Assembly: GCA_964016885.1 (NCBI GenBank)
Contig: OZ024752.1
Coordinates: 39,556,001-39,620,000 of the forward strand
Source of the DNA: Eledone cirrhosa
Taxonomy: Eukaryota
Length of the DNA stretch: 64,000 nucleotides
Reading direction: 5' to 3'
In this document: positions 6,931-56,200 of the stretch, piece by piece
Numbering within the stretch: the first letter of the stretch is position 1
Layout: each line of letters starts with the position of its first letter
Notes under the pieces: generated by a model
The model's database searches: none
What the model saw: only the letters and a program-made list of their open reading frames with translations
Told to the model about the DNA's origin: nothing
Translations under genes and position numbers: made by a program

Positions 6931-7182
6931 TAGTTTAGATTGTGTATTAACACTATAATAAACCAGGAGGAACGTCGTCTTTCGGGCATTTTCTCCTAGA
7001 TTATGTCTCCCTTCCCAAATCTTTAAAATTATCTTTAAACTTATAAGATAGTGAAATATAAAAATGAAAAGAAAACGTTCGGAAAAACAGTTTTTAGGCA
7101 TTTATAAGAAAGATGAAATAAATTTTGAAATAACTTTTGGACATTTATAAGAAATATCGGAATTTACAAAATAGCAAAACTT

Positions 7183-8443
7183 GAAAAACACTTCGAGTAC
7201 TTCTTGCTATATGTGAAAAATACTCCGAGTACGTCTTCTATATGTGAAAAATATTTCGAGTACTTCTTGCTATATGTGAAAAATATTTCGAGTACTTCTT
7301 GCTATATGTAAAAAATACTTCGAGTACTTGTTGCTATATGTGAAAAATATTTCAAGTACTTCTTGCTATATGTAAAAAATACTTCGAGTACTTGTTGCTA
7401 TATGTGAAAAATATTGAGTATTTGTTGCTATATGTGAAAAATATTGAGTATTTGTTGCAATATGTGAAAAATTTTGAGTACTTCTTGCTATATGTGAAAA
7501 ATATTTCGAGTACTTCTTGCTATATGTGAAAAATACTTCGAGTACTTGTTGCTATATGTGAAAAATATTGAGTATTTGTTGCTATATGTGAAACATTTTG
7601 AGTACTTGTTGCTATATGTGAAAAATATTTCGAGTACTTGTTGCTATATGTGAAAAATATTTCGAGTACTTCTTGCTATATGTGAAAAATACTTCGAGTA
7701 CTTGTTGCTATATGTGAAAAATATTGAGTATTTGTTGCTATATGTGAAAAATTTTGAGTACTTGTTGCTATATGTGAAAAATATTTCGAGTACTTCTTGC
7801 TATATGTGAAAAATATTTCGAGTACTTCTTGCTATATGTGAAAAATACTTCGAGTACTTGTTGCTATATGTGAAAAATATTGAGTATTTGTTGCTATATG
7901 TGAAACATTTTGAGTACTTGTTGCTATATGTGAAAAATATTTCGAGTACTTGTTGCTATATGTGAAAAATATTTCGAGTACTTCTTGCTATATGTGAAAA
8001 ATACTTCGAGTACTTGTTGCTATATGTGAAAAATATTGAGTATTTGTTGCTATATGTGAAAAATTTTGAGTACTTGTTGCTATATGTGAAAAATATTTCG
8101 AGTACTTCTTGCTATATGTGAAAAATATTTCGAGTACTTCTTGCTATATGTGAAAAATACTTCGAGTACTTGTTGCTATATGTGAAAAATATTGAGTATT
8201 TGTTGCTATATGTGAAACATTTTGAGTACTTGTTGCTATATGTGAAAAATATTTCGAGTACTTGTTGCTATATGTGAAAAATATTTCGAGTACTTCTTGC
8301 TATATGTGAAAAATATTTCGAGTACTTCTTGCTATATGTGAAAAATATTGAGTATTTGTTGCTATATGTGAAACATTTTGAGTACTTGTTGCTATATGTG
8401 AAAAATATTTCGAGTACTTGTTGTTATATGTGAAAAATATTTC
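7183..8443. repeat. 30/32-bp minisatellite (ATATGTGAAAAATATTTCGAGTACTTCTTGCT) with 156/312-bp higher-order period
   Basis: Variant marker AAACATTTTG recurs at 7591, 7903, 8215, 8371. Confidence 0.95.
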
Positions 8444-8828
8444 CTTCGTTCGGTAAATTTCCAATAGCAGTATATTCATGACAGCAAAAATGACAAAAAG
8501 GTGAATCTAAAGGTATGAGCTCCTCGAAATGGGATGGTTCTTCTAACGCATCTCCTTTACCATCCTCCGGGGAAACGCCTTCCCCATTCTGTCCGCCGGG
8601 GCCGTGGGGGTGGCCATCACGTGGGACCCCATTTGCTCATAATACAGAGAGATGGGGGGAGGGGGCGAGAGATGGAAGAAATGACAGTGGGGGTTCGGTT
8701 CTTCCATGATCGGACACATCAATTCCATGTTGCTGTTGATACTTAAATATCCGACCATTCAGCAGTTTAAAGACAGAGCCTGGAAGAGGGAGAATAAAAA
8801 CAGTAAAGAGTAAGCTATGGGTCTAAAC

Positions 8829-10875: not shown

Positions 10876-13537
10876 ACTAAGTGTAAATTCATAAACTTTT
10901 AATACTTCAAAACGTATAATTTTTTTTATAGTTTATTAAACACTTCTGACTAATATATTTGAGATAGTACATAATTGATACTTTATTTATTTATTATATC
11001 AAGAATAAAATAAAATCTAGCTTAGTTTCAACAGCCCCTCGCCACCACACATCATTGAAGAAGAATTCACGTGAGCTTCAATGTGACCATTGAAGACACC
11101 ATAAGGATTGTCAATGATTTCTCACATAGACCCAAGGTCACACACACTTAGCTATATCTACATATATGTAGCGCAAGCAATTTTGATTTTCACATCCTTC
11201 TCAACAACGCATGGGAAATGAAATAGTTTCTACTAAAACTAAAACTTAATAACTGAAATGGTCTCTTCCGGATTGTTGCTATTGTTGTTGTTTAGATTTA
11301 AGTCAGCTCCGAGAGGGTTGATCAATGACCACTCGTTATTATTTCAGGAGTTATTCAGGCGGTGGATTGGCAGTATCGGTAGAGGGTCGGACGCCATGCT
11401 TTCCAGCATAGTTACGTCCCTTTACGATCTGAGTTCAAATCCCGCCGATGTTGACTTTGTCTTTCATCTTTACGGGGTCGATAAAATAAAGTACCAGTAA
11501 TGCACTGGGTAATCGCTGGCCTTGTGCCTAAAGTAGAAACAATTATTTCAGGAGTTATGGCCCTTTATGATCTGAGTTCAAATCCCGCTGAGGTTAACTT
11601 TGTCTTTCATCTTCACGGGGTCGATAAAATAAAGTACCAGTCCCCCCCCCAAAAAAAAAATAATTGCTGGCCTTGTTCTTAAATCAGAAACCATTATTTC
11701 AAGAACAGTAGGGCAGTGGATTGGCAGTACCAAAAATGTACTGGGGTCGATTTAATCGACTTTCCTCTCCCCTAAAATTGTTAGCTTTGTGCCTAAATCA
11801 GAAACCAATATTTCAAGCATAGTACGGAAATTGGTGTCTGTTTGATGAAAGCTTCACCTCCATTCTTTAACTGGCTCAATCAATTGACTGCCACACAAGA
11901 GCATGCACATACCCTAACTTCTGGGTCTCGAAAAATCGCCCCCGTTTATTAATTTTTCAGATGTTTTCCAGCCCCACTCTAATCAATCTCCGGTGAAATT
12001 TTCTTTATACATTAAAAAACATTATACACGACAAAAGAGAAAGAATATTACAAGAAATCCCATACGTTATAAAATAAATAGGATGGGTTAGGGTCTCAAT
12101 ATGTAAACTAAACGACTAATTCTGGTTTAAAAAAAAAAAAATCAACGGAGACAACCTAGAAAAATTATCAATTTTCCATTCCCCCAGCTTATTCTACCAC
12201 CACACCCCTATTGCTTAGGACCTAAGCGTACCTGTGTTTATACATATAAAATATCTACTAGTGAAATAATTATTTCTACGTTTGGCACAAGGCCAACAAT
12301 TATCCCAGTGTATTACCGGTGCTTTATTTTATCGACCCCGTAAGGATAAAAGGCAAAGTTAACCTCGGCAGGATTTGAACTCAGACCGCAAAGGGACGTA
12401 ACTATGCTGGAAAGCATGGCGTCCGACCCTTTACCCTTACTGCCAATCCACCTACTAGTGAAATAATTGTTTATACTTTTGGCGCAAGGCCAGCAATTAC
12501 CCAGTACATTACTGGTACTTTATTTTATCGACCCCGTAAGGATGAAAGGCAAAGTTAACCTCGGCGGGATTTGAACACAGATCGTAAAGGGACGTAACTA
12601 TGCTGGAAAGTATGGCGTCCGACTCTCTACCGATACTGCCAATCCACTGAAATAATGTTTTGTTACAATATTCAGTACATTGCAAAGTAACCCGGAGATA
12701 AGATGAAGTTTAACGCCTGCCTTGCCCATGACAATACGACAGTAAAGGAAAATACAAAATAAAAATGGAAATCATGCATTGTGATATATTTTTCAGTTTC
12801 TTTTCAAAACTTGACAAACAGGTTTTTACATTAATTTGCATCAATGCTTGAAAATGTCTACGTCTTATTGGAAACGAAACAATTGTATTCTAGTTTTTAA
12901 TTTATTTTATTTTTCTTCTCCTCCTAAACACCTACTTGTCCACTAATTTCTTTTAGGCGTTTTCTTTTTTTAATATTTAAGTTGCTAAGGAGGTCGTGAC
13001 AAATTCGGTAGCGCGTCAAACAAAATTACTTGCAGTGTTTAGTTGCGTCATTTTACGCTCTGAATCCGATTCTTACCGAAGTCGTCATTTTATTTTACTC
13101 GTTTAAAAGCGTTGAAGTATATACCGGGCAAGCGCTGGTTTTGATATAATCGTCTAAACATACCCACAAAATCACAAATTCTACCGATACTGCCAATCCA
13201 CCGCCGTTTAAAATTAATAATTGTTTTTACTTTTGGCACAAGGCCAGACATTATCCCAGTGTATTACTGGTACTTTATTGTATCGACCCCGTAAGGATAA
13301 AAGGCAAAGTTAACCTCGGCGGGATTTGAACTCAGACCATAAAAGCCCGTAACTCTTTGCTGCAAAGCATGGCGTCCAGCCTTCTACCGATACTGCCAAT
13401 TCACCGCCATTTAAAATTAATAATGTTGCTGAGGATGACAAGGATTGTCATACTGAAGTATTTGTGAATTTGTATATGTTTAGAATTAATAATGTTGCTG
13501 AGGACGATAAAAATGTGGCAATCTAGTACTGGGGTGA

Positions 13538-14947: not shown

Positions 14948-15018
<71 letters not shown>

Positions 15019-15020
<2 letters not shown>

Positions 15021-15433
15021 GATATTAAATAAATGGAAACTATATTTATAAAACCATATTTATTTCACTATATATATTTCAGGGATATCATATTAAAAAT
15101 ATGGTATGCCTTCATCAGACAAAATACAATATAAACAGTCTTATAAATAGATAGATTTGACATACCTTACAACTTCAAATCTATCTATTTATAAGACTGT
15201 CAAATCTATCTATTTATAAGACTGTTTATATTGTATTTTGTCTGATGAAGGCATACCATATTTTTAATATGATATCCCTGAAATATATATAGTGAAATAA
15301 ATATGGTTTTATAAATATAGTTTCCATTTATTTAATATCGTAATATCGTAAATATACTCCAAATACTTGTTGAGTGCTTTTATTTCAGTTATAAATATTT
15401 ACTCGTTGTAACCCAACAATTTAAATAAAACTT

Positions 15434-15437
<4 letters not shown>
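15019..15437 (+). mobile_element. Family A PLE-like element, 144-bp arms (15019-15162/15198-15341) plus 3' tail, in (TA)n
   Basis: Near-perfect palindrome flanked by (TA)n on both sides. Confidence 0.8.
15234..15299 (+). ncRNA. Minimal type I hammerhead, family A (antisense twin 15061-15126)
   Basis: UAUUUUGU-CUGAUGA-AGG..CCU-GAAA-UAUAUA-UA-GUGAAAUA. Confidence 0.75.
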
Positions 15438-15471
<34 letters not shown>

Positions 15472-16479: not shown

Positions 16480-16987
16480 CACCATCATCATGTGTCCACG
16501 TTTTCCCTGCTTGCAAGGGTGGGACAGGTCCTATTCAGAACAGCATCTCTCCACTTGTCACGGTCTTTCGTTATCTCCTCCGTGAGATATGCAAATCAGG
16601 CTGATCAGTGGATCTGCTAATATGCAGATCTGATTGATCAGCCATTTTGCTAATGTAAATGGAGTCGTTCGTAGACTTATATTCTACTTGTGTCGCGCGG
16701 GTTTATGTACGGGTGCGCGTGTTTATGTGTTTTGGTGTCCTTGAAATATGTATAATGAAATAAATATGGTTTTATAAATATAGTTTCCATTTGTTAATAT
16801 ATTGTATTGTGGATTGGCAGAATCGCTAGAGAGTTGGACGCCATGCTTTCCAGCATAGTTATGTCCCTTTACGGTCTGAGTTCAAATCCTGCCGAGGTTA
16901 ACTTTGCCTTTCATCCTTACGGGATCGATAAAATAAAGTACCAGGAATACACTGGGTAATTGCTGGCCTTGTTCCTAAAATAGAAAC

Positions 16988-17014
<27 letters not shown>

Positions 17015-17022
<8 letters not shown>

Positions 17023-17455
17023 TAAAAGGAATTCCATCTTTGTCTGATTTACTCGTTTTATTTACAATCCTTTAAAATTTATAATGGTATTAGAATGAAA
17101 TAGTATGATAGAATATTAAATGTTAAGTGTTAATTGAACAAGTACTTTCATGCTTTCGCAATCTTCAGGTTCATAATATGTGGTGACAGTCAAGTTTGCA
17201 ATTTTCAACTGTGAAAATTGCAAACACAGTTGAAAATTGCAAACTTGACTGTCACCACATATTATGAACCTGAAGATTGCGAAAGCATGAAAGTACTTGT
17301 TCAATTAACACTTAGAATTTAATATTCTATCATACTATTTCATTATGATACCATTATAAATTTTAAAGGATTGTAAATAAAACGAGTAAATCAGACAAAG
17401 TTGGAATTCCTCTTATTAATATAATCTTCTATACACAATCATACACACCCGTGTA
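17015..17455 (+). mobile_element. Family B PLE-like element, 199-bp arms (17015-17213/17225-17423)
   Basis: Palindrome next to (TA)n; degenerate second copy 29556-29783. Confidence 0.8.
17265..17303 (+). ncRNA. Minimal type I hammerhead, family B (antisense twin 17135-17173)
   Basis: UGAAC-CUGAAGA-UUGC-GAAA-GCAU-GAAA-GUAC-UU-GUUCA; palindromic GUAC stem III. Confidence 0.8.
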
Positions 17456-17533
17456 TATTTATCTATCTCTCTCTCTATATATATGTATATATACGATATT
17501 AATAAATGGAAACTATATTTATAAAACCATATT

Positions 17534-17598
17534 TATTTCATTATACATATTTCAGGGATACCACATTAAATTATGGTATGCCTTCATCAGACAAAATA
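17534..17598 (-). ncRNA. Minimal type I hammerhead, family A, in element 17493-17972
   Basis: Minus strand CUGAUGA-AGGCAUACCAUA..UGUGGUAUCCCU-GAAA-UAUGUA-UA-AUGAAAUA. Confidence 0.78.
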
Positions 17599-17968
17599 CA
17601 ATATATAACAGTTTTACAAATAGCTTTGACGTACCCTTTTAAAATACAACCATTACTTTTGGAGGCTGTCTGGATAGTGATTTGTTTATATTATTTTAAT
17701 AAGTCATAGTGTTAAGCAGAATTAGAAAAAGATGGAGAGAAAGAAAAAAGGCGGAGAGAGAGAAAAGAACAAAGACGGAGAGAGAGAGAAAGAAAACCTG
17801 AAGAAATATCGGAGAGAGAGAGAAATGTATGGAGAAAAGAAAGAGATAAATAAAGATAGGAGGAAATAAAAAATAAATCGTATATCTACTCCAAAAACTT
17901 GTCGAGTGCTTTATATCAGTTATAAAAATATTTACTTGTTGTATCCCAACAACTTTAAATAGAACTTT

Positions 17969-18013
<45 letters not shown>

Positions 18014-18142: not shown

Positions 18143-18648
18143 ATATTATAATGAAATGACAGGAGGCTGGATTTGTGTAAATCCTTGAAAGGTTTATTAT
18201 ACTATGATCATTTCAATGACCGGGTTCCGTATGAATCCGGTGATATCATCAGGTATTCGAAATATAATACGTGAATGTAATAGATAAAATCCATGGGGCT
18301 GAAAATCGAGGACCCGAGGGTGACCGCTATTCTGTTCCTCCAACCTCAGCCGGTCGCCCTGGATTTTATCTATTACATTCACGTATTATATTTCGAATAC
18401 CTGATGATATCACCGGATTCATACGGAACCCGGTCATTGAAATGATCATAGTATAATAAACCTTTCAAGGATTTACACAAATCCAGCCTCCTGTCATTTC
18501 ATTATAATATTTAACTCCGTACTAGCACCACCAACTACAAAAACAAAGATGGTTGAACTGCTTTACGTTGAGTACTCTCTATATTATTGCATTACGATTG
18601 ACCATACGGAATAGACCAGCTCTATACAGTGGTGAACCTCAAACCTGA

Positions 18649-18652
<4 letters not shown>
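18143..18652 (+). mobile_element. Family C PLE-like element, 151-bp arms (18143-18293/18360-18510) plus tail, in (TA)n
   Basis: Apparently perfect inverted arms, (TA)n both sides. Confidence 0.8.
18397..18454 (+). ncRNA. Minimal type I hammerhead, family C (antisense twin about 18199-18256)
   Basis: AUAC-CUGAUGA-stem II (ACCGG..CCGGU)-GAAA-UGAUCA-UA-GUAU. Confidence 0.8.
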
Positions 18653-18688
<36 letters not shown>

Positions 18689-19400: not shown

Positions 19401-19902
19401 GTATAGGATTACCCAAGATGTAGTAATGGTTAATTACTACACTGGATATGGTTGACGTACGGTGAGAGGTTACTCTACGAGTTATGGAAGAATTGTTGAA
19501 GAAACTTAGTTCCTGATCCTTCTGTATTCCGGAGTGTATATAAAGAATGAATAATAACAGGTAGACATCATAAAAAGGTAATTTATTCCGTGTGCTTACA
19601 AATGTTTCCACGGAGGATACTACAGCCTAGTTATGCTATGTGCAAATTTACAAGTATTTGCAGAACTCAAATATCCAATGCTGTGACCACTGTATCCTCA
19701 CTTAAGGGTATTTACATTGTACATTTTACCATTCTGCTCTGAGGATACAGTGGTCACAGCATTGGATATTTGAGTTCTGCAAATACTTGCAAATTTGCAC
19801 ATAGCATAACTAGGCTGTAGTACCACCGTGGAAACATTTGTAAGCACACGGAATAAATTACCTTTTTATGATGTCTACTTGTTATTATTCATTCTTTATA
19901 TA
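19398..19902 (-). mobile_element. Family D PLE-like element with inverted arms (19537-19700/19740-19902), in (TA)n
   Basis: Palindrome; close homologue at 53213-53692. Confidence 0.8.
19735..19846 (+). ncRNA. Type I hammerhead with 85-nt stem II, family D
   Basis: UGCU-CUGAGGA-[85 nt closed by ACAGUGGU/ACCACCGU]-GAAA-CAUUUG-UA-AGCA. Confidence 0.7.
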
Positions 19903-20990: not shown

Positions 20991-21369
20991 CAAAAACAGA
21001 AACGACCATCAATTCACCACCAAATATGACAAACGACTGCACGTCATACCACTATTGTCAACGAAATATTTTAAGGCAAACCAATACACTCGCAGTGATG
21101 GCGAGGCTAGGGTGCTGAAACAACCAGGCATCCTCACGGGCTTCACCTGGCGATGATAAGAACTTCGTTGTCAGCGGCCCAGTTCCACGAAACGTCTCGA
21201 ACGCCACAGGCTGGAAAAGAATAATTGTTAGATAGATTTTGAAAGATTATTTGACCACCATTCATCTTGGCTGAATTATTGAAGATCAATGAACATGGAT
21301 TTTTAAAAGCCACCATTCTGAAAGAGAGGACATCTTGAAGAAATCTATCTTTAAAAGAAATTTATCTTT

Positions 21370-22181
21370 AAAAGATTGGAGATACTATATATTGTAAAAG
21401 ATTGGAGATACTATATATTGTAAAAGATTGGAGATACTATATATTGTAAAAGATTGGAGATACTATATATTGTAAAAGATTGGAGATACTATATATTGTA
21501 AAAGATTGGAGATACTATATATTGTAAAAGATTGGAGATACTATATATTGTAAAAGATTGGAGATACTATATATTGTAAAAGATTGGAGATACTATATAT
21601 TGTAAAAGATTGGAGATACTATATATTGTAAAAGATTGGAGATACTATATATTGTAAAAGATTGGAGATACTATATATTGTAAAAGATTGGAGATACTAT
21701 ATATTGTAAAAGATTGGAGATACTATATATTGTAAAAGATTGGAGATACTATATATTGTAAAAGATTGGAGATACTATATATTGTAAAAGATTGGAGATA
21801 CTATATATTGTAAAAGATTGGAGATACTATATATTGTAAAAGATTGGAGATACTATATATTGTAAAAGATTGGAGATACTATATGTTGTAAAAGATTGGA
21901 GATACTATATATTGTAAAAGATTGGAGATACTATATATTGTAAAAGATTGGAGATACTATATATTGTAAAAGATTGGAGATACTATATATTGTAAAAGAT
22001 TGGAGATACTATATATTGTAAAAGATTGGAGATACTATATGTTGTAAAAGATTGGAGATACTATATATTGTAAAAGATTGGAGATACTATATATTGTAAA
22101 AGATTGGCGATACTATATATTGTAAAAGATTGGAGATACTATATATTGTAAAAGATTGGAGATACTATATATTGTAAAAGA
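21370..22181. repeat. 26-bp minisatellite (AAAGATTGGAGATACTATATATTGTA), about 31 near-identical copies
   Basis: Direct tandem repetition. Confidence 0.97.
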
Positions 22182-22933
22182 TCTACTAACTATAAACCAA
22201 ATATTTGAGTACATGGAAGCTACAAAAAGATTCAACAACAGAACCTTCTAACTGCTTTGCAGCTTGCCGTGTTTTCCATTTTATCTTTATCTGTTTTTTA
22301 ATGCTTATCCTCCCCCCCCCCCCCACTCACCCCGTTGGCCTTCCCTATTTAAATATTTTTGTATCATTCTATTGTGTTTATTTATATTTTTTATTTAATT
22401 ATCTCTATTTGGGTTTTTGTAGTCTGCCATGGCTTAATAGCACTGTACAGATGATTAAATTAATAAATAAATAAGGGAGGCGAAGTCATAAGTTAGCAGA
22501 ACAATTTCAATAGCTTTACTGTATATGTGCTCGACATGCTTGGAGGGTTTCAGGATAAAAAAACAAAACCTGACAAAGGGCGGAAGAACTCATAAGAGTC
22601 AACGGCCATCCAAATATGTGTAAATATGTATATGCATGGTTATGTATATGCGCAGGGACATAGAAATAATTTGGCTGGATACCCTATCGCGCGGTTAAGC
22701 CACTGGGAGTGAAGGACCCCTAGCCTTTGTCAGGGCATTCTTCTAGGAGAAAGCAACCCAGGAAACTGGGATAACTCCGACATAAAACCTGCAGCTCAGT
22801 AGTTACCCATGATGTTGATCTTTTCTTCATTTTGGGTTATAGTTACTGTCTCTCAGAGAGTGGGATTGGCTCAGTGCACAGTCTTTCCTCATTTAAAAAA
22901 AAATCTTCACGCACACGCATTGCACGATAGCAT

Positions 22934-23499
22934 TTGGCAGTATCGGTGGAGGGTCGGACGCCATGCTTTCCAGCATAGTTACGTCCCTTTACGATCTGAG
23001 TTCAAATCCCGCCGAGGTTGACTTTGCCTTTCATCCTTACGGGGGTCGATAAAATAAAGTACCAGTAATGCACTGGGTAATTGCTGGCCTTGTGCCTAAA
23101 GTAGAAACAATTAATTAATAGAGTAATTATTAATAATTGTTTCTACTTTTGGCACAAGGCCAGCAATTACCCAGTGTATTACTGGTATTTTATTAATTGT
23201 TTCTACTTTAGGCACAAGGCCAGCAATTACCCAGTGTATTACTGGTATTTTATTAATTGTTTCTACTTTAGGCACAAGGCCAGCAATTACCCAGTATATT
23301 ACTGGTACTTTATTAATTGTTTCTACTTTAGGCACAAGGCCAGCAATTACCCAGTGCATTACTGGTACTTTATTTTATCGACCCCGTAAGGATGAAAGGC
23401 AAAGTCAACCTCGGCGGGATTTGAACTCAGGTCGTAAAGGGACGAAACTATGCTGGGAAGCATGGCGTCCGACCCTCTACCGATACTGCCAATCCACCG
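22934..23499. mobile_element. Tail-to-tail SINE pair with a 60-bp x4 tandem of the SINE 3' end
   Basis: + copy 22934-23112, - copy with repeated tail 23133-23499. Confidence 0.9.
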
Positions 23500-24262: not shown

Positions 24263-24312
<50 letters not shown>

Positions 24313-24388
24313 GGTTGTCAAGTATGAAATTTGTAGAAATTTATAGAAAAAAAAAAAAAATTTCTACAAATTTCATACTTGACGACCC

Positions 24389-24440
<52 letters not shown>

Positions 24441-24818
24441 CACACAGACCATTGTGTTACTTTCTGTTTAAGAAAGTAGAATGTCATTTAATGCGATTAC
24501 GTGGGTTTTCTTTGTGTATGGTTTGAATAACCAAGCTTTCTCATCTCGTTGTAAAAGGGTGTGTTCAGTTGATTTTCTTTATGCCTAAAGTTAACACAAA
24601 ACGCTAAAGTTTGTCTCGAGCCCAGAGGCTTCTCGGACCAGTGCTTATCCTAGTGTGTGTGGTGTGAAGCAACTGATAGTACAACATTCTCCCCTGGACA
24701 GGACGCCAGTGCATCACATGGTTAATAAACTCTCCATTTACAGCTGCTACTCGTTTTTAACTGAGTATACTGGAGCAACGTGAAATGAAGTGTTTTGCTC
24801 AAGAACACAACACACAAC

Positions 24819-25587
24819 CCTGTCCACGACATTTTGATCGTAAATCCAAAACCTTTACCACGTGCCCTCACAAAGGTTACACAGCCATTCAATAAACATA
24901 GCCGTTCAATAAACATAGCCGTTCAATAAATATAGATTGATAAAATAAGTATTAGGCTGATTAGATACTGGTCAAGCCTGTCCACGACATTTTGATCGTA
25001 AATCCAAAACCTTTACCACGAGCCCTCACAAAGGTTACACAGCCATTCAATAAACATAGCCGTTCAATAAACATAGCCGTTCAATAAATATAGATTGATA
25101 AAATAAGTATTAGGCTGATTAGATACTGGTCAAGCCTGTCCACGACATTTTGATCGTAAATCCAAAACCTTTACCACGAGCCCTCACAAAGGTTACACAG
25201 CCATTCAATAAACATAGCCGTTCAATAAACATAGCCGTTCAATAAATATAGATTGATAAAATAAGTATTAGGCTGATTAGATACTGGTCAAGCCTGTCCA
25301 CGACATTTTGATCGTAAATCCAAAACCTTTACCACGAGCCCTCACAAAGGTTACACAGCCATTCAATAAACATAGCCGTTCAATAAACATAGCCGTTCAA
25401 TAAATATAGATTGATAAAATAAGTATTAGGCTGATTAGATACTGGTCAAGCCTGTCCACGACATTTTGATCGTAAATCCAAAACCTTTACCACGAGCCCT
25501 CACAAAGGTTACACAGCCATTCAATAAACATAGCCGTTCAATAAATATAGATTGATAAAATAAGTACTAGCCTGATTAGATACTGGT
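24819..25587. repeat. 158-bp tandem repeat, about 5 copies
   Basis: CCTGTCCACGAC at 24819, 24977, 25135, 25293, 25451. Confidence 0.95.
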
Positions 25588-25678
25588 ATCAATATGATTG
25601 ACTAAGATACTTGAGGGTGGAGCCTCAGTATAAACACAGTTTTATTACTAAAGCCAGCGGAAAAACATATTTCAATTA

Positions 25679-25978: not shown

Positions 25979-25985
<7 letters not shown>

Positions 25986-26240
25986 TGTAATAAACAACAT
26001 AAGGCAATTATTCCATTTACCAGTGGTTTCTTAAAAGCAAAAAATTTTGCTTTCAATCCTCAGAATGAAAAAATCCAGGGTCTCTTTTTCATTCTGAGGA
26101 TTGAAAGCAAAATTTTTTGCTTTTAAGAAACCACTGGTAAATGGAATAATTGCCTTATGTTGTTTATTACATAACTATTAAGCTCTATTACCTACATAGA
26201 GCCCTCTTTTTTCCTGGACTTTTCCGACGGAATTACTTCA
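25979..26240 (+). mobile_element. Family E PLE-like element, 94-bp arms (25979-26072/26085-26178) plus tail, in (TA)n
   Basis: Apparently perfect palindrome flanked by TA-rich microsatellite. Confidence 0.8.
26088..26145 (+). ncRNA. Type I hammerhead, family E (antisense twin about 26012-26069)
   Basis: UUCAUU-CUGAGGA-UUGAAAGCAAAA/UUUUGCUUUUAA-GAAA-CCACUGG-UA-AAUGGA. Confidence 0.85.
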
Positions 26241-28050: not shown

Positions 28051-29212
28051 AAATATTGTGAATATAATTTTTCTCTTGTAATGTGTATTCCATGTTATAG
28101 CATCCAGCAATAGTCAACCATTATACCGACAATCCCAAATATTTGGTATCATGTTTCCATTGTAAGAATAACTTGAAGGAATCGTTTATCTTGCTCATCT
28201 CCTACCAAAATTTTCTGTAGAAAAAAAAAAAAAAAAATTTTAATGACCCCTAAAATTCCCAACCTCACCTCCATACACAGACTATTTATTATTTCCTTGG
28301 AAAGTTTTTGTATAACCATTGAAAAAAATTAGCCAGTCTTTTAATTCCTGCATATTGAGAGTGTTTCTTTTTCTTTCAAAATTCAATATTATTTAAAGTC
28401 TCCGTAATGGGCGGTGGATTGGCAGTAAAGGGCGGTGGATTGGCAGTATCAGAAGAGGGTCGACGCCATGCTTTCCAGCATAGTTATGTCCCTTTACGAT
28501 CTGAGTTCAAATCCCGCCGAGGTTGACTTTGCCTTTCATCCTTACGGGGTTGATAAAATAAAGTACCAGTAATGCACTGGGTAATTGCTGGTCTTGTGCC
28601 TAAAGTAGAAACAATTATTTAAAGTCTCCCTAGTCTGCAGTCTACAAAAATTCCTTCCCTTAACTTTATCACAATCACATTTGGAAATTATTATATAAAA
28701 AGGAGAGAGATGCTGTGCTGAAAAGGACCCATCCCACCCTTGCAAGCAAGGAAAAGAGGACGTAAGATGATGATGATGATGATGATGATATAATGAGGAT
28801 GATTATATATATATATATAAGAATAACTGTTTCTACTTTAGGCACAAGGCCAGCAATTACCCAGTGCATTACTGATACTTTATTTTATCGACCCCGTAAG
28901 GATGAAAGGCAAAGTCAACCTCGGCGGGATTTGAACTCAGATCGTAAAGGGACGTAACTATGCTGGAAAGCATGGCGTCCGACCCTCTACCGATACTGCC
29001 AATCCACCGCCCTATATATAAGAATAACATTAAGAAAGATGCTAATGATATTACATCTTTCTTTATGTTATTCTTATACTGGATCTCCATTGTAACTACA
29101 AACTCTGAGTGTAGAGAGCTTTCTCCTGTTTGCTCCTGTTTTTACCAAAACAATCTCTACTGAACATATATATATATATATATGTTCAGTAGAGATTATA
29201 TATATATATATA

Positions 29213-29556
29213 TGGAGGCACATGGCTTAGTGGTTAGAGGATTGGCCTTGCAATCGAAAGGTTGTGAGTTCAGTTCTCAAACCGGGTGATGTATTGTTTC
29301 CTTGCGCAAGACACTTTATTTCACGTTGCTCCAGTTTACTCAGCTGTAGAAATGGGATGATAGGGACTGGGGTCCCTATCATTCCACTGCAAAGTGGTCG
29401 TGGAGGTGTCATGCAAAAAAGCACCCAGCACTCACTATAAATGAGGTTGGTGTTAGGAAGAGCATCCAGCTGTAGAAAACAAGCCAGAATCAGTTCCCGT
29501 CCCACCCTTGCAAGCAGGGAAAAGCGGACGTAAAAATGATGATGATGATGATGATG
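29213..29556 (+). mobile_element. Second tRNA-derived SINE (~330 bp) with RTE-derived 3' end and (ATG)n tail
   Basis: TGGCTTAGTGG A-box, GAGTTCAGTTCT B-box-like, CCTTG(A/C)GCAAGACACTT core; full minus-strand copies at 42371-42714 and 45314-45658. Confidence 0.85.
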
Positions 29557-29787
29557 AAAATTGCAAACTTGACTGTCACCACAGAATGAACCTGAAGATT
29601 GTGAAAGTATTTGTTCAATTAATACTTGAAATTTAATATTCTACCATACTTTTTCATCATAATATTATAATTTTAAAGGATTGTAAATAAAACGAGTAAA
29701 TCAGACAAAGCTGGAATTCCTTTTATTAATATAATCTTCTATACACAATCATACATACCCGTGTATAGAAGATTATATTAATATTTA

Positions 29788-29827
<40 letters not shown>

Positions 29828-30063
29828 AAGTTATATTTAAAATTGTTGGGTTACAACTAGTAAATATTTATAACTGATATAAAAGCACTCGACAAATATT
29901 TGGAGTATATTCTTTCGTTTGGGGTATATTCTTTCGTTTTTCCCTCTTTTCTTTCTCTCTTTCTTTCTCTCTGTATTTTCACTGCTAGCGTAAACCTCTT
30001 CAAATGAAGTTGATGTTTATTACGGTATGTCGAATATATTTATCTATAAAACTGTTTATATTG

Positions 30064-30129
30064 TATTTTGTCTGATGAAGGCATAGCATATTGTTAATAT
30101 GATATCCCCGAAATATATATAATGAAATA
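30064..30129 (+). ncRNA. Minimal type I hammerhead, family A, in element 29825-30172
   Basis: UAUUUUGU-CUGAUGA-stem II-GAAA-UAUAUA-UA-AUGAAAUA. Confidence 0.72.
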
Positions 30130-30167
30130 AATATGGTTTTATAAATATAGTTTTCCATTTATTTAAT

Positions 30168-30242
<75 letters not shown>

Positions 30243-42200: not shown

Positions 42201-45200
42201 GTGCTCTTCCAGGTTTCAGTCACGTAAAGCACTGACGGCAGCACAATGTTCTTGTACAGGTGTAGCTTGATCCTACCATCATATACATGCCCACACACAC
42301 ACATGCACACACACACACAGACACGCAGACACACATGCACACAAACGCACACATGCACATACACACACACATCATCATCATCATCATTTCATTTTATGTC
42401 CGCTTTTCCCTGCTTGCAAGGGTGGGACGGGAACTGATTCTGGCTTGATTTCTACAGCTGGATGCCCTTCCTAACACCAACCTCATTTACAGTGAGTGCT
42501 GGGTGCTTTTTTGCCGTGGCACCTCCACGACCACTTTGCAGTGGAATGATAGGGACTCCAGTCCCTATCATCTCATTTCTACAGCTGAGTAAACTGGAGC
42601 AATGTGAAATAAAGTGTCTTGCTCAAGGAAACAACACATCACCCGGTCTGAGAATTGAACTCACAACCTTTCGATTGCAAGGCCAATGCTCTAACCACTG
42701 AGCCATGTGCCTCCTATATATATGTATATATATTTGGTCCAAATTTATATGGGTATTAGCCCATTGGGTTGTTTCATTTACTTAATTAACCTCTTGTGCT
42801 GAACAGTTAAAAGCTGTTTCAAACTTTGCCCAAATTGGTGCTACCAGACATGGTAAATGATGTAGAGAACTATATAATTATAATACTTGTAAATATTAGA
42901 AAACCACCAATGCAAATGTTTCACTGTCTTCAGTTGCAGTGTAATCATCAGAAATATCTTGAAAGGGAAAAGAAACATTTGTCAACAGGAATTGAAACCA
43001 AATGTTAGATTTTATTTACTTTTCTTATGAACTTACTCTTATTCTATGGTATTTACTATTATGTAGTTTTCTTATAGATTTCTAAGATATTTAAAATCTT
43101 TTTCTAATTTCTTTTCAGAAAGAAGAAAAAATACGTAATATTCGCTGGACAATTGTGGACATTAATGACAACACTCCTATATTTTCTCAGTCAGTGTATA
43201 CTGTTGATGTTAATGAGGTAAGCATGATTATGACAGTTCTTTGGTTCAACATAATTTTAAAAGCTAATGTTGTTTACAGCTTTCATATGATATTTTGATT
43301 ATTTCAAACTATAAAAATGCATTTTTGATAACTTTTAAAATATAAGAATTTCTGACTTAATAGCACCACCTGGTGAAGTCTTTCAAATAAGCATTTAGCA
43401 TCATGGCCCACTTAAGTAGAGAGTTATTATTTATGGAGACATATCCAGGTATAGGGGGTTTATCCGGGATTCCTTGGAAGAATTTGTCCAAAGACTCTTT
43501 TAATTTTATGGGATCTGTTTCTGTTTTAATGTGTTTTGGTGTAATATTAAAGAGAGCAGGACCAATTGAGGTGAAATAATTGTGGCATAATGTTGTTTTG
43601 AGATGTGAATTTAATTTTTGTGGTGGGTAGATAGCACAGGGCCCAAGCCTTAGGTGTAGTTTAAAGGCGATGCCAATATCATTTGGGCAATGCTGATGAA
43701 ATATTTTCTACATCATGCAGATAATGTAGTGCTCACTGTGGTATTGGAGAGAGTAAAGTTTAAGCTTTTCTAGTCAACCCTAATAGTCAAGGCTTGTCAT
43801 GCTGTCTATCTTTTTTTTGTGATTGACCTTTAAGGTGCTTCAATTTTCATTATACTTTGCTTCCTGTTTCCACTGTGGAAAACAGTATTCAAGGTGGGGT
43901 TGGGCAAAAGTAGAGAAAATATGGATAATGGTGTGGATATCTCTCAACTGAAAAATTCTAAGAATCCAGGAACATCCTGTGGGCCATGTTTACTGTTTAT
44001 ATGAGTAATCCAGCTTATGCTGTTATCAACAATTACTCCCAGGTATCTGATATTGTTGGATACCATGAGGGTTTCAGAGCATTCTCTTTTCCACAGTGGA
44101 TCAATTCGAATTTATCCTTATTCAGCAGCATATCTTTTTTCTGCCCATTGGATAACAGTAAGTAGATCTAATTGAAGGCCTGTCTGATCTCCCATTCCAT
44201 TGATAACCTTCTGGGGCTTGAATCACCTGCAAAGATTCTTATGTTGCTGTGCTTGATGACGTCAGTAATGTTATTGATATAGATAATGAAAAGAAATGAA
44301 CCCAACATAATGCTTTGTGGGCTGCCACTACTGGGCTTGATTTAACTCCTTCGACTACAACATGTTGGCCTCTGTTTGTCAAGAAATACTTGATCCATTG
44401 CAGTAACTTTCCAGAGACACCAATGATAGTTAGTCTTTTCAGTAGAATATTTGTGTATATATTCACATATTAGTCGATCAATCCTGTCAAAGGCCTTGCT
44501 GAAATCAAGGTATATGACATCAGAATTGGAGCCCTCTCCCAAAGCTCTTAAAATGTCATCAAAGTGATGTAGGAGGTGAATTAGGCAGTCCCTTCCATTA
44601 TGGAACCCATCCTAGTTGGAGTTCAGCAGATTGTTGCTTTCAAGAAAGTGAGTTATTTGTGATCTCATCGCCCTCTCAACTACCTTAATGATATGAGTGG
44701 TGAGTGAGATTGGATGGTAATTCACTGCAAGGGACTTGTTTCTCTTTTTGAAAACTGGAACAACAGACTGGGACAGAAAGTTTTCAAGTATATAGCCAGT
44801 GTTCAATGAGTTCCTCCGCAGATTAGCTAGAGGAGATGTAAGTTGGTGTCAATACACTTTCAGGACACTAACAGGGAACTATTAGCGCCTACTGCTAAGT
44901 TGTGTTTAATTTCATTTATTGCTGTTAAGACATCAGGGACACCAAACGTTATGCATGATATAGCGTGTTGGGGATTAAGATCACTGATACCGCCTAGGTC
45001 AGCCATATAAGGATTGCTGAAAAAAGAGCAGTATTGTTTCTGCAGCATCTCACCCATGGTTTTAACATTGTTTTTGGAGAGTGCCATTTTTATCAATCAG
45101 AGGGCCAATTGTGGTGACAGTGATCTTGTGTTTTTTTGCAGATGAAAAGAACACTTTGGGATTCGATCTTCATTCATTGCTGGAGATTATATTTTTTAGA

Positions 45201-49600: not shown

Positions 49601-52040
49601 TAAGAAAAATCGTCTTTGACTATGATTTTAATGTGTTGCATGCATTTAACTTCTGTAATATTACAAATATCCTTATGAGGGTTGGCTGAAAAAATCTTAG
49701 GCTGACCAAGATACTCTCAGCGAATGACCAAATGAGGGTTTATTTTTCAACATGGTTCTCGGAGAGAAACAATGCAGTTAATCCGTATCGGTAGAGGGTC
49801 GGACGCCAGGCTTTGCAGCACAGTTACGGCTCTTAATGATCTGTGTTCAAATCCCGCCGAGGTTAATTTTGCCTTTCATCCCTACGGGGTTGATAAAATA
49901 AGTACCAGTAATGCACTGGGATAATTGTTGGCCTTGTGCCAAAAGTAGAAACAAATATTAAGAAGTGTTGAAATCAATGCATGCCATATTTCACAGCATC
50001 ACTCTAGCCATATTTCTAGCATCACTCCTTTATAGGCTGACCAAGATACTCTCAGCGAATGACCAAATGAGGTTTATTTTTTAACATCACTAGCATCACT
50101 CCTTCATAGGCTGACCAAGATACTCTCAGCGAATGACCAAATGAGGTTTATTTTTTAACATCACTAGCATCACTCCTTCATAGGCTGACCAAGATACTCT
50201 CAGCGAATGACCAAATGAGGTTTATTTTTTAACATCACTAGCATCACTCCTTCATAGGCTGACCAAGATACTCTCAGCGAATGACCAAATGAGGTTTATT
50301 TTTTAACATCACTAGCATCACTCCTTCATAGGCTGACCAAGATACTCTCAGCGAATGACCAAATGAGGTTTATTTTTTAACATCACTAGCATCACTCCTT
50401 CATAGGCTGACCAAGATACTCTCAGCGAATGACCAAATGAGGTTTATTTTTTAACATCACTAGCATCACTCCTTCATAGGCTGACCAAGATACTCTCAGC
50501 GAATGACCAAATGAGGTTTATTTTTTAACATCACTAGCATCACTCCTTCATAGGCTGACCAAGATACTCTCAGCGAATGACCAAATGAGGTTTATTTTTT
50601 AACATCACTAGCATCACTCCTTCATAGGCTGACCAAGATACTCTCAGCGAATGACCAAATGAGGTTTATTTTTTAACATCACTAGCATCACTCCTTCATA
50701 GGCTGACCAAGATACTCTCAGCGAATGACCAAATGAGGTTTATTTTTTAACATCACTAGCATCACTCCTTCATAGGCTGACCAAGATACTCTCAGCGAAT
50801 GACCAAATGAGGTTTATTTTTTAACATCACTAGCATCACTCCTTCATAGGCTGACCAAGATACTCTCAGCGAATGACCAAATGAGGTTTATTTTTTAACA
50901 TCACTAGCATCACTCCTTCATAGGCTGACCAAGATACTCTCAGCGAATGACCAAATGAGGTTTATTTTTTAACATCACTAGCATCACTCCTTCATAGGCT
51001 GACCAAGATACTCTCAGCGAATGACCAAATGAGGTTTATTTTTTAACATCACTAGCATCACTCCTTCATAGGCTGACCAAGATACTCTCAGCGAATGACC
51101 AAATGAGGTTTATTTTTTAACATCACTAGCATCACTCCTTCATAGGCTGACCAAGATACTCTCAGGGCGGTGGATTGGCAGTATCGGTAGAGGGCCGGAC
51201 GCCATGCTTTCCAGCATAGTTACATCCCTTTACGATCTGAGTTCAAATCCCGCCGAGGCGAGGTTGACTTTGCCTTTCATCCTTACGGGGTCGATAAAAT
51301 AAAGTACCAGTAATTAACTGGATAATTGCTGGCCTTGTGCCTAAAGTAGAAACAATTATTTAACATCACTAGCATCACTCCTTCATAGTCCTCCTATGAA
51401 CACTCCAGCCAACTCTTGTATTTTTAATAGCTATAACTGTGAAAGAACTCTTATTATTTAACTAAATGTTTACTGTTTCTTGCCTGTAATAATCTATATT
51501 AAGAACAATTCACTGTTTCCATTCTTGCAGATCAATGGAAATGATGCTTTCATTATCAATCAACCATTCTATGGTTACATCTTACTTAATGCTGAACTTG
51601 ATTTTGAAACTCTTCAGAAAGCTGGTAACACTCAATACACATTAAACATATCAGCAACTGTAAGTGTTTTCTATATGTATATATATATATATATATGTGT
51701 ATATATATATATGTGTGTGTATATATGTGTGTGTGTGTATGTATATATGTGTGTGTATATATGTGTGTGTGTGTATATGTGTATGTGTGTATATATATAT
51801 GTGTGTGTGTATATATATATGTGTGTGTATATATATATGTGTGTGTGTATATATATATATATATGTGTGTATATATGTGTGTGTGTGTGTATGTATATAT
51901 GTGTGTGTGTATATATGTGTGTGTGTGTATATATATATATAGTAATAATAATAAATGCGAACACTAAAATCTAAAGAGGGCTTTCAGAAGATCCCGTTAA
52001 GGGTGAAAGCAGCAATTGTTTGCTTAAACTTTACTCTGTT

Positions 52041-53215: not shown

Positions 53216-56200
53216 GTATAGGATTATCCAAGATGTAGTGATGGTTAATTACTACACTGGATATGGTTGACGTACGGTAAGAGGTTACTCTACGAGTTAT
53301 GGAAGAATTGTTCAAGAAACTTAGTTCCTGATCCTTCAGTATTCCGGAGTGTATATAAAGAATGAATAATAACAGGTAGACATCATAAAAAGGTAGTTTA
53401 TTCCGTGTGCTTACAAGTGTTTCCACGGTGGTGCTGCAGCCTAGTTCCGCTACGTGCAAATTCCCAAGTATTTGCAGAACTCGAATATCCAATGCTGTGA
53501 CCACTGTTTCCTCAGAGCAGATTCTGCTCTGAGGAAACAGTGGTCACAGCATTGGATATTCGAGTTCTGCAAATACTTGGGAATTTGCACGTAGCGGAAC
53601 TAGGCTGCAGCACCACCGTGGAAACACTTGTAAGCACACGGAATAAACTACCTTTTTATGATGTCTACCTGTTATTATTCATTCTTTATATATATATATA
53701 TATATATTTTTATTTTTTTTATTTTTATTTTATTTTTATTTATTTATTATTATTATTTTTTTCTTTTTTCTTTCTCCTCGTGCAATGGCCATACTCGATA
53801 ACGAGGGGGCAGCCATCATGTATGTATGTATGTATGTATGTATGTATGTATGTATGTTTGTGTGTGTGTGCCTTTGTATGAGTATATTTGTATATGCATT
53901 TTAAAAAATTGAGATTTTTTTTAACTAAGCCTTCATGATATTTATTCAGCATTAAGTTACAGATATCTTTCTCTGGAAGAAATCTGCCGTATTCAGACCT
54001 GGAGAGGAGTTAGGCTATGCCAGGCTTAAGAAATTTGTTCTAGAAAAAATGCTGTATGGGAATACAGTATTCCACACCTCCCTCTGGAGTTATGGGACCA
54101 TATATACATACATGCATACATTCTTCTTTGTATGTGCTAAACTATAGAGTATAAGACATCAGAGTTTACAGACATTCATTGCCTTTTTCAATTTCATGAA
54201 GCAAATAAATACCAGTTTCAAAATGAATTAAAATGCACAGGCAGTGTATTCCAATAAAAATTATGGTTGCAAACAGTTTAAAATATACTGCGATGACTCC
54301 TTGTAATAGTTCTTTCCATGGAATCCTTATAGGATTTTACAAAATTTACAGAATCCACATCTATATTTTACAGTTTCTCCAAGACATTGACAGTTTTGCT
54401 AAAGTGAGAATTTATTCATATAAAAATAAACATATAATAGTCAATATGTGGTGTACTTCTGTGCAAAGATACTATAAAATAGAAGACCCTCGAAGATGGA
54501 AAAAAAATTTGCCATTCTAGTGGCCAATAGCAAATTCTTTTATTAAGGGTCCCCACCCTATTTTATGAGTTATTTTTAGCATCTCCACCACTCTCTATAT
54601 TGACTTAATCCTTCCAGTGCTTTGTAAATAAAGCCTGAGAGATCGGTTATGTATACATGATGTTTGTAAACATGTGATAATTTAAAAAATCAAATTCTAT
54701 TAAAATACACCTCAAGCAGTTCTTAGAAACACATTTTGGGAAATATTGTATTATAACATTGATGAACATCAGATTCTTCAATTCTAATTACCTGCCTTCA
54801 AGTCCTGATAAAGTAAACTGTTACCATTGTGCTTGTTGTAATGTTTGTTTATATTTTAAAATATTTCAGGATAAGGGAACAGTACGAAATGCTAACTATG
54901 CTACACTTAACATAAGGATTACAGATGGAGATGACCTTGACCCAGCTTTTATCTACCCAACATGTTACAAAGTGAATAATCATTGTATATCACCACAATA
55001 TGATCTAAAGATAAATGGTGGAATAGTAAGTGAAAGTTTTATTTTGTTGATGTTGTTGTTGTCATTATGTAGCCACAGGCTGGTCTTGATCAAGAAGCTA
55101 TTCGGCATGTTTGTAATTGGTTCAAAAACTAGATGTGATTTGCAGATCAGTAGAGGTAAGTTGCCTGCAAAACTAAGTTCTTAAGTTGGTAACTATTTCA
55201 CTGCCCTTATACTGCTAATGTTATTAGGAAAAAGGGCGGTGGATTGGCAGTATCGGTAGAGAGTCGGACACCATGCTTTGAAGCGTAGAGTTACGTCCCT
55301 TTATGATCTGAGTTCAATTCCCGCCGAGGTTAACTTTGCCTTTCATCCTTACAGGTTCGATAAAATAAAGTACCAGTAATGTACTGGGTAATTGCTGGCC
55401 TTGTGCCAAAAGTAGAAACAGTTATTAGGAAAAACACAAACATCACAACTTTCTATTTCTTGGTTCTAGTTAAAAGAAAAAATGCAATATGATGTAATGT
55501 TAATTTGAAGGTAAATGTTTGTTGTGAAGAGGGCAATTATATTGAGAAAATAGCTGAGTATTGGCTAATGAGTGGTGGAAAGACAACAGTATTTAGAAAT
55601 ATATGGATGATGCAGACTAAGTGGGAAAGTGCCATAAAACACCCAATACACAATGTAAATGTGGTTGCCATTAGGAAGGGCATCCAGCCATAGAAACCAA
55701 GCCCAAATCAGTTCTCTATGAGGAAGACATGATGATTTAACCTGGCTTGTCTCACAATGGGACAACTCATCTAACCCATGCTAGTGTGGGAAAATGGATG
55801 TTAAACGGTGATGATGATAATGAATGCACACACATTTGTTCATAGTGGCATGCAATTGATTTATCAAGACTTATAAATATCTTGCTTTTATTGTCTTTCA
55901 GATTAATAACAATTTACAACTTTATCCCAAACCAGTGAACAACCCATATGTGGCAGTGTCACTGAAAGCTAAAGACAAAGACACACTGAATTCAAATTTA
56001 AAACTCTATATTGAAAGTAAGTGTATTTAATTTCAATTCTTCAAGAACTTCTTTTCCATAAATTTTTGCTCCTAGTTTTCTAGTTTAGATGTGTTCAATA
56101 GCAACAGGCGTTGATTGGCTGTATTTGTATAATTATTCTCTTTGCTCATATTTATTGACAGATGCAAACAAAAGAAATAAATGTTTGGTTTGGGCATGTA

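Follow-up and report, generated by a model that had tools for sequence, protein, structure and literature searches.

The insertion at positions 15020-15436 raises the question of how one retroelement can meet its target DNA with a 3′ end on both sides. The window, that is, the whole 64-kb stretch of DNA analysed here, is intergenic, AT-rich, and rich in (TA)n, and belongs to a host genome of 3.0 Gb. The (TA)n target on the left (14951-15019) is followed by an inverted short arm (15020-15178, minus strand) ending in ...TTAATATCG, which stands opposite a direct long arm (15198-15436, plus strand) ending in ...AACTTTGC at the (TA)n target on the right (15437-15468). The short end, which is the pLTR end, was designated S, and the long or tail end, located about 90 nt beyond S, was designated L. 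The inner end of the short arm lies 158 nt upstream of S, and the long arm spans from 142 nt upstream of S to L. Each arm contains a Type I hammerhead motif according to our own descriptor (15061-15126 on the minus strand; 15234-15299 on the plus strand, with a predicted cut after 15291).

Where the arms meet (15175-15224, plus strand), a 4-nt overlap at 15175-15178 is followed by a 25-nt tandem duplication. The 26-bp spacer repeat described earlier at 15175-15200 is thus real, with 15175-15199 equal to 15200-15224 and a match over 26 nt. The repeated template switching that had been proposed from it is plausible at the inner joint, where templated extra bases occur among the insertions, but host repair is possible as well, and the outer ends do not need such switching. 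Beyond S, the tail proper (15349-15436, plus strand, 88 nt) corresponds to the start of the pre-ORF leader of full-length relatives. It contains an acceptor-like TTTCAG on the plus strand with its last base at 15388, as well as a bulged hairpin, H1, just behind S (15356-15375, plus strand), a second copy of which, H2, lies just behind L in full-length relatives. Tails measure 88-91 nt in the subfamilies A1, A1p, and A2, and the tail of this copy reaches 96 nt instead of 88 through 8 extra nucleotides duplicated at the S site within the long arm (15341-15348, plus strand). Such a change was seen in 1/163 L arms, and no excess of indels at S was found within these arms.

Judged by its sequence features, family A, to which this insertion belongs, is the end of a Hydra-clade Penelope-like element (PLE). 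An upstream walk from related copies reached an open reading frame, and the parent element was found elsewhere in the genome. This parent copy (L052:96-4150) consists of a complete unit with a tail, and its 737-aa frame is unbroken. Its L arm, which begins 2 nt behind the upstream S, is attached to an inverted S arm of 1.1 kb. Since the ATG of the frame lies about 50 nt behind L, the tail is the beginning of the leader. The same read-through of the tail into the ORF leader was observed in a second copy (L296:980-2200), a partial tandem which continues across S, L, and both hairpins until it enters the ORF, and whose outer end bears a very short S arm (about 10 nt). The PLE identity suggested by the initial annotation was borne out by this RT/GIY-YIG frame together with a pLTR derived from a partial tandem, an inverted 5′ copy, and a one-sided tail, all of which are present.

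The 737-aa protein has a YRDD core and VY..YVG..R..H motifs, RWR at position 37 (RWK in 32/69 homologues and RWR in 18/69), and DKT at position 118 (61/69). It further contains a CxCx5C linker, as well as CxxC and CxH around the conserved E and N, and lacks both CCHH and the internal Cys pair. The combination of RWK/DKT, CxCx5C, CxxC/CxH, and no CCHH is given as the Hydra-clade signature in the protein descriptions of PMC8557442. The Neptune clade had been our first guess, but Neptune/Nematis proteins have a CX2-5CxxC finger and CCHH, whereas the linker here is CxCx5C and the internal Cys pair is absent. Pfam and PDB searches with the single 737-aa ORF gave no match, and library support was weak, with GIY-YIG in 5/69 homologues, a retron RT at E 0.019, and RVT_1 on 1 among the 120 homologues listed. 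The closest named ORF homologues, among those listed, are from Argonauta. Insertion into (TA)n is a family trait, as 62 of 72 A1/A1p/A2 insertions are flanked on both sides by at least 6 alternating A/T (median 27). The hammerhead descriptor gave 12 matches in the window, all of them in families A-E, compared with 0-2 in 30 shuffles. Rfam returned no hammerhead among the 150 of 221 matches listed, which were hairpin-like miRNA matches below the gathering score. Minimal hammerheads in pLTRs, also as close pairs on opposite strands, are described in PMC4209133. A genome search with the A1p core gave no match and is not informative on the occurrence of A1p.

The two outer ends are base-precise, and they follow a nearly absolute pairing rule. 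Among head-to-head insertions that had not been selected for their shape, 134/135 paired one S with one L end and none had S on both sides, which deviates from an independent choice of ends with p ~3e-39. The two defined RNA positions and fixed outer ends proposed by the initial annotation are supported by these counts, and its statement that one junction is always the pLTR end and the other a longer tail end needs the qualification that one insertion is L/L and that the tail is usually 88-91 nt. The first part of this set came from 108 called pairs, from which four with unclassifiable ends and one tandem duplicate were removed to leave 103, and 26 found with a palindromic query were then set aside. 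The remaining 77 pairs (45 core-selected, 11 upstream-selected, 15 from unselected blocks, and 6 incidental) comprised 76 S/L and one L/L. The second part was selected by the tail and consisted of 90 loci without overlap with the earlier loci, from which 3 duplicates were dropped. All 58 pairs in it were S/L: an S partner was called automatically in 56 cases and with wider joints in two more (L313 and L322), an L partner in none, another partner in one; two loci were cut off, and 26 had no partner in view. Among the pairs counted are the inverted long copies, of which 11/11 obey the rule.

The one true L/L insertion (42820-43143 in the block G000:C4, locus L155) has a three-piece joint. Two further cases fall outside the rule, namely an L copy next to which lies a 7-nt L-like stub of ambiguous status (L055) and an inverted arm ending at neither site (L350). 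An 852-bp tandem duplication (L014/L015) carries a whole S/L insertion together with its flanks. The earlier statement that each insertion has two arms proved too wide, since 1.33 Mb of unselected DNA contained 16 pairs and 14 unpaired arms; thus, roughly half of the copies are single-armed. A search for hidden tiny partners of the single arms yielded only three S arms with an L stub and one tiny S arm. With about 30 copies in the 1.33 Mb, family A extrapolates to tens of thousands of copies genome-wide. The copy searches were biased to young, well-matching copies.

The other insertions in the window show the same layout. The A2 insertion at 17494-17971 has an S arm of about 390 nt (minus strand) and a tail-only L arm (plus strand), and the A1p insertion at 29824-30171 has a tail-only L arm (minus strand) and an S arm of about 240 nt (plus strand). 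In these two the overlap is almost nil, the tail-only arms starting at -3 and +3 from S, and both are S/L, as had been reported. An A3 insertion at 1-381 (L251) is also S/L, its S end lying a few bases before the start of the window, and a single S-ended arm at 16733-16800 (plus strand) has no inverted partner. Short/long palindromes with hammerhead motifs represent family B at 17019-17470 (tail of about 45 nt), family C at 18143-18655 (about 140 nt), and family E at 25979-26240 (about 62 nt). Family D has a long/short palindrome at 19441-19896 with a tail of more than 96 nt, its long end lying to the left of 19441, and a second D copy ends at 53686. The asymmetry claimed for families B-E was upheld, with 11/11 adjacent head-to-head pairs that have family ends on both sides being short/long when read by eye (B 3, C 3, D 3, E 2). 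In one additional family C pair, the inverted arm ends at neither site.

Several features of the window stand beside these insertions. Family A and family B insertions adjoin twice in common TA targets (17019-17971 and 29548-30171). A repeat at 11361-12647, 22934-23492, and 28426-29016, which we take to be SINE-like from a B-box-like word, forms inverted pairs in the opposite, tail-to-tail layout. Additional short hairpins lie next to TA tracts at 565-621 and 24312-24388, and the region 565-720, with a CTGATGA word, could represent the end of a further PLE. Near-perfect tandem arrays of 26, 74, 156, and 158 nt are located at 21369-22188, 49942-51203, 7150-8445, and 24815-25588, respectively.

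The inner breakpoints had been described as variable, but they are capped rather than free. In 60/118 pairs the furthest 5′ end falls within -2 to +12 of the A of an initiator-like TCACT/CCACT motif (the A1p offset being set by eye), and just one falls in the 15 nt upstream. This cap is located about 185 nt upstream of S and moves with the subfamily (-186, -184, and -182), and in A1 a TATA-like word precedes the initiator-like site. The cap is likely the 5′ end of the RNA. In leader-type copies it was reached by S alone in 21 cases and by L alone in 4. The L inner ends between -110 and +20 form a weak cluster at S, with 8/27 at -12 to +5 (p 0.025), where the eight include the window's own two cases and L052.

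RNA signals surround the two ends as well. Both read-through copies, L052 and L296, have twin hairpins, of which the first, a bulged one, begins 7 nt behind S and the second 8 nt behind L; an A-U to G-C swap distinguishes the two. All seven pairs of the first hairpin are kept in 174/186 scored tails with varying loops. This retention mostly reflects conservation rather than covariation, and the hairpins of family A fold with weak z-scores (-0.6 to -1.6). Since the second hairpin lies beyond L and is hence missing from inserted copies, the long arms likely stem from tandem junctions such as that of L296. Four subfamilies carry a donor-like GT at -139 to -146 and an acceptor-like AG at +39 to +43 from S. 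These signals define a putative intron in the A1-A3 pLTR, from -146 to +43, which would take the hammerhead and S out of the mRNA. Because the donor- and acceptor-like sites enclose both, S would be available only on unspliced RNA.

We propose that the head-to-head pair was probably made by coupled twin target-priming, with a single unspliced RNA copied from both S and L. This RNA would begin about 185 nt upstream of S, at the initiator-like site, and would be the template for reverse transcription primed by the two nicked strands of the (TA)n target, by one strand at S and by its opposite at L. Two RT molecules would be positioned by the hairpins that follow S and L, with the help of the 1-2 nt of TA-like sequence at these sites. 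Of the two, the RT at S would run ahead and often reach the 5′ end of the RNA, while the RT at L would trail and either halt at S, giving tail-only arms, or displace the first cDNA, giving overlapping arms. The two cDNA ends would then be joined by microhomology, which averaged 2.0 nt at the joints versus 0.8, or by templated filler. Priming in the leader would yield palindromes of 300-480 bp, and priming at a tandem junction would yield arms of up to 4 kb.

Coupling of the arms can be seen in their sequence and in their extent. Divergence between the arms of an insertion is 0.8-1.7%, compared with 1.9-4.6% between insertions, and an arm was closer to its own partner in 87/90 cases, palindrome-selected copies included. 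Shared variants occur at 0.0082 per site in 11 insertions with spans above 1.5 kb and at 0.0093 in 60 insertions with spans below 600 bp, and this equality at short and long span argues against hairpin conversion. Furthermore, either both arms cross the cap or neither does (13/9/3/40, p 1e-5), a coupling that was significant in A1 (p 0.0008) and A3 (p 0.018) and not significant in A2 (p 0.29).

These data bear on the strongest rival, dual priming, in which an asymmetric complex contains two RNAs of the same active source, with S used for priming on one of them and L on the other. Overlapping arms count against twin priming on one RNA, as the same RNA stretch must be copied twice, whereas two RNAs would give such arms without strand displacement. 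The shared variants would need only one source, and a dual priming of this kind was proposed for L1 in PMC2837659. In sequence, one RNA and two RNAs of the same source would look alike. However, two RNAs would need an extra rule to bar S/S and L/L pairs (1/135), and they predict neither the joint crossing of the cap nor the L arms that stop at S. We therefore regard dual priming as unlikely.

The initial annotation had offered twin TPRT and a template jump side by side. Twin TPRT fits, but a jump or snap-back of a single cDNA does not, since S often outruns L and only L has the tail; snap-back also fails because each arm can hold sequence absent from the other. In an elaborated version, a single cDNA would fold back or jump, and the resulting intermediate would afterwards be cleaved by the endonuclease, on one side at S and on the opposite side at L, which would make the tail a resolution product, as suggested in PMC8557442. 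This version would yield shared variants and one-sided tails, and according to PMC11167929 the tail is cited as required for EN recognition in D. virilis Penelope. Its templated junction inserts also exist: the 87 joints comprised 36 with microhomology, 9 blunt, 23 with 1-8 extra bases, and 19 with at least 9, and 12 of these 19 long inserts match nearby element sequence (3.5 expected). Nevertheless, a copy of the L-primed cDNA cannot outrun it, yet the S arm extends further inward in 35/70 and 34/56 pairs, by up to 3.6 kb (the L arm is longer in 25 and 12). Moreover, only 4/87 joints are symmetric, and the RT starts mapped in vitro in PMC11167929 lie on the tail ends. Fold-back with later resolution is thus improbable.

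Even less probable is self-priming on an antisense transcript, which was put forward in PMC3846280 for the same architecture in rotifer PLEs and would account for intron retention. It does not predict a cap, yet the inner ends stop at the sense-strand initiator; most joints are non-palindromic, and the outer ends lie at sense-strand hairpins. Finally, we give almost no credence to a fold-back or assembly artefact or to post-insertion homogenisation of the arms. Polishing could homogenise close arms, and in four runs no read covers the joint of the 15020-15436 copy at 15180-15194 (a zero that proves nothing). However, fixed asymmetric ends occur at >130 loci, the rule holds for arms kilobases apart, and in raw reads from another study S ends continue into TA and some arms are joined to each other, in one case with the cap reached (9 reads in X22, 5 strand-switch reads in X23). 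In the empty-site check, confined to the fetched DNA, 3/98 flank pairs matched an empty paralogue, none decisively, and any target-site duplication is masked by (TA)n; the lengths of the flanking tracts correlate weakly (rho 0.31).

A broader proposal is that twin priming is the programmed, normal route of PLE insertion. The duplicated leader hairpin would load two telomerase-related RTs onto a single RNA at a distance of about 90 nt, each serving one of the nicked strands, and the tail, the inverted pLTR, and the masses of short palindromes would all come from one reaction. We consider the case for this proposal evenly balanced. If true, the twin-priming reading would account for a large group of the short palindromes located in TA repeats, and it bears on how the telomerase-related Penelope family inserts, with the mechanism being inferred from genome footprints. 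The near-absolute S/L rule, the cap, and the coupled arms translate into sharp predictions for the existing in vitro system of PMC11167929.

Inverted pLTRs, one-sided tails, and two RT start sites were known already; the counted S/L rule, the cap, and the twin-priming reading are what is added here. Strict S/L pairing, a cap, and a twin-priming mechanism for PLEs were not found in the literature searched, which was mostly open-access, nor do the rule, the cap, or this reading appear in passages from 10.64898/2026.07.22.740005 and PMC13282606. The origin of inverted pLTRs and one-sided tails in PLEs is named as an open question in both PMC8557442 and PMC3846280. In the account of Hydra-clade EN+ PLEs by Craig et al. 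(2021; PMC8557442), the unit is generally <3 kb with a tail of 30-40, whereas family A has a unit of about 3.95 kb and a tail of 88-91 nt. The passages on the tail in that paper ascribe it to EN resolution, often at one end only, and contain no pairing counts.

For Poseidon_Ac, a PLE of another clade, Frangieh et al. (2024; PMC11167929) described in vitro TPRT with two internal RT starts that bound a tail just behind the pLTR. Both target strands were cut and extended, a dimer was predicted, and the template was uncleaved RNA. The two starts are not connected there with the opposite strands of a single target, nor with inverted pLTRs, and the word 'inverted' occurs once, in an unrelated context. 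The RT starts were not homologous to the cut DNA and the start site showed no strand preference, both of which count against the twin-priming reading. The Penelope elements of Adineta vaga (Arkhipova et al., 2013; PMC3846280) likewise have head-to-head inverted pLTRs, an optional tail on one of them, and a TATA plus TCACT initiator in the pLTR. Self-priming on antisense RNA was invoked for them, whereas the footprints of family A favour a sense RNA primed twice. In the twin and dual priming of L1 (PMC2837659), both nicked strands likewise prime and head-to-head fragments are joined at microhomology. The L1 form itself, with non-overlapping fragments and a chance second site, was rejected for family A, which works alike but not in that form: in L1 the second site is internal and arises by chance and the product carries a deletion, whereas in family A both sites are fixed about 90 nt apart, overlap of the arms is usual, and copies of this type make up about half of the total.
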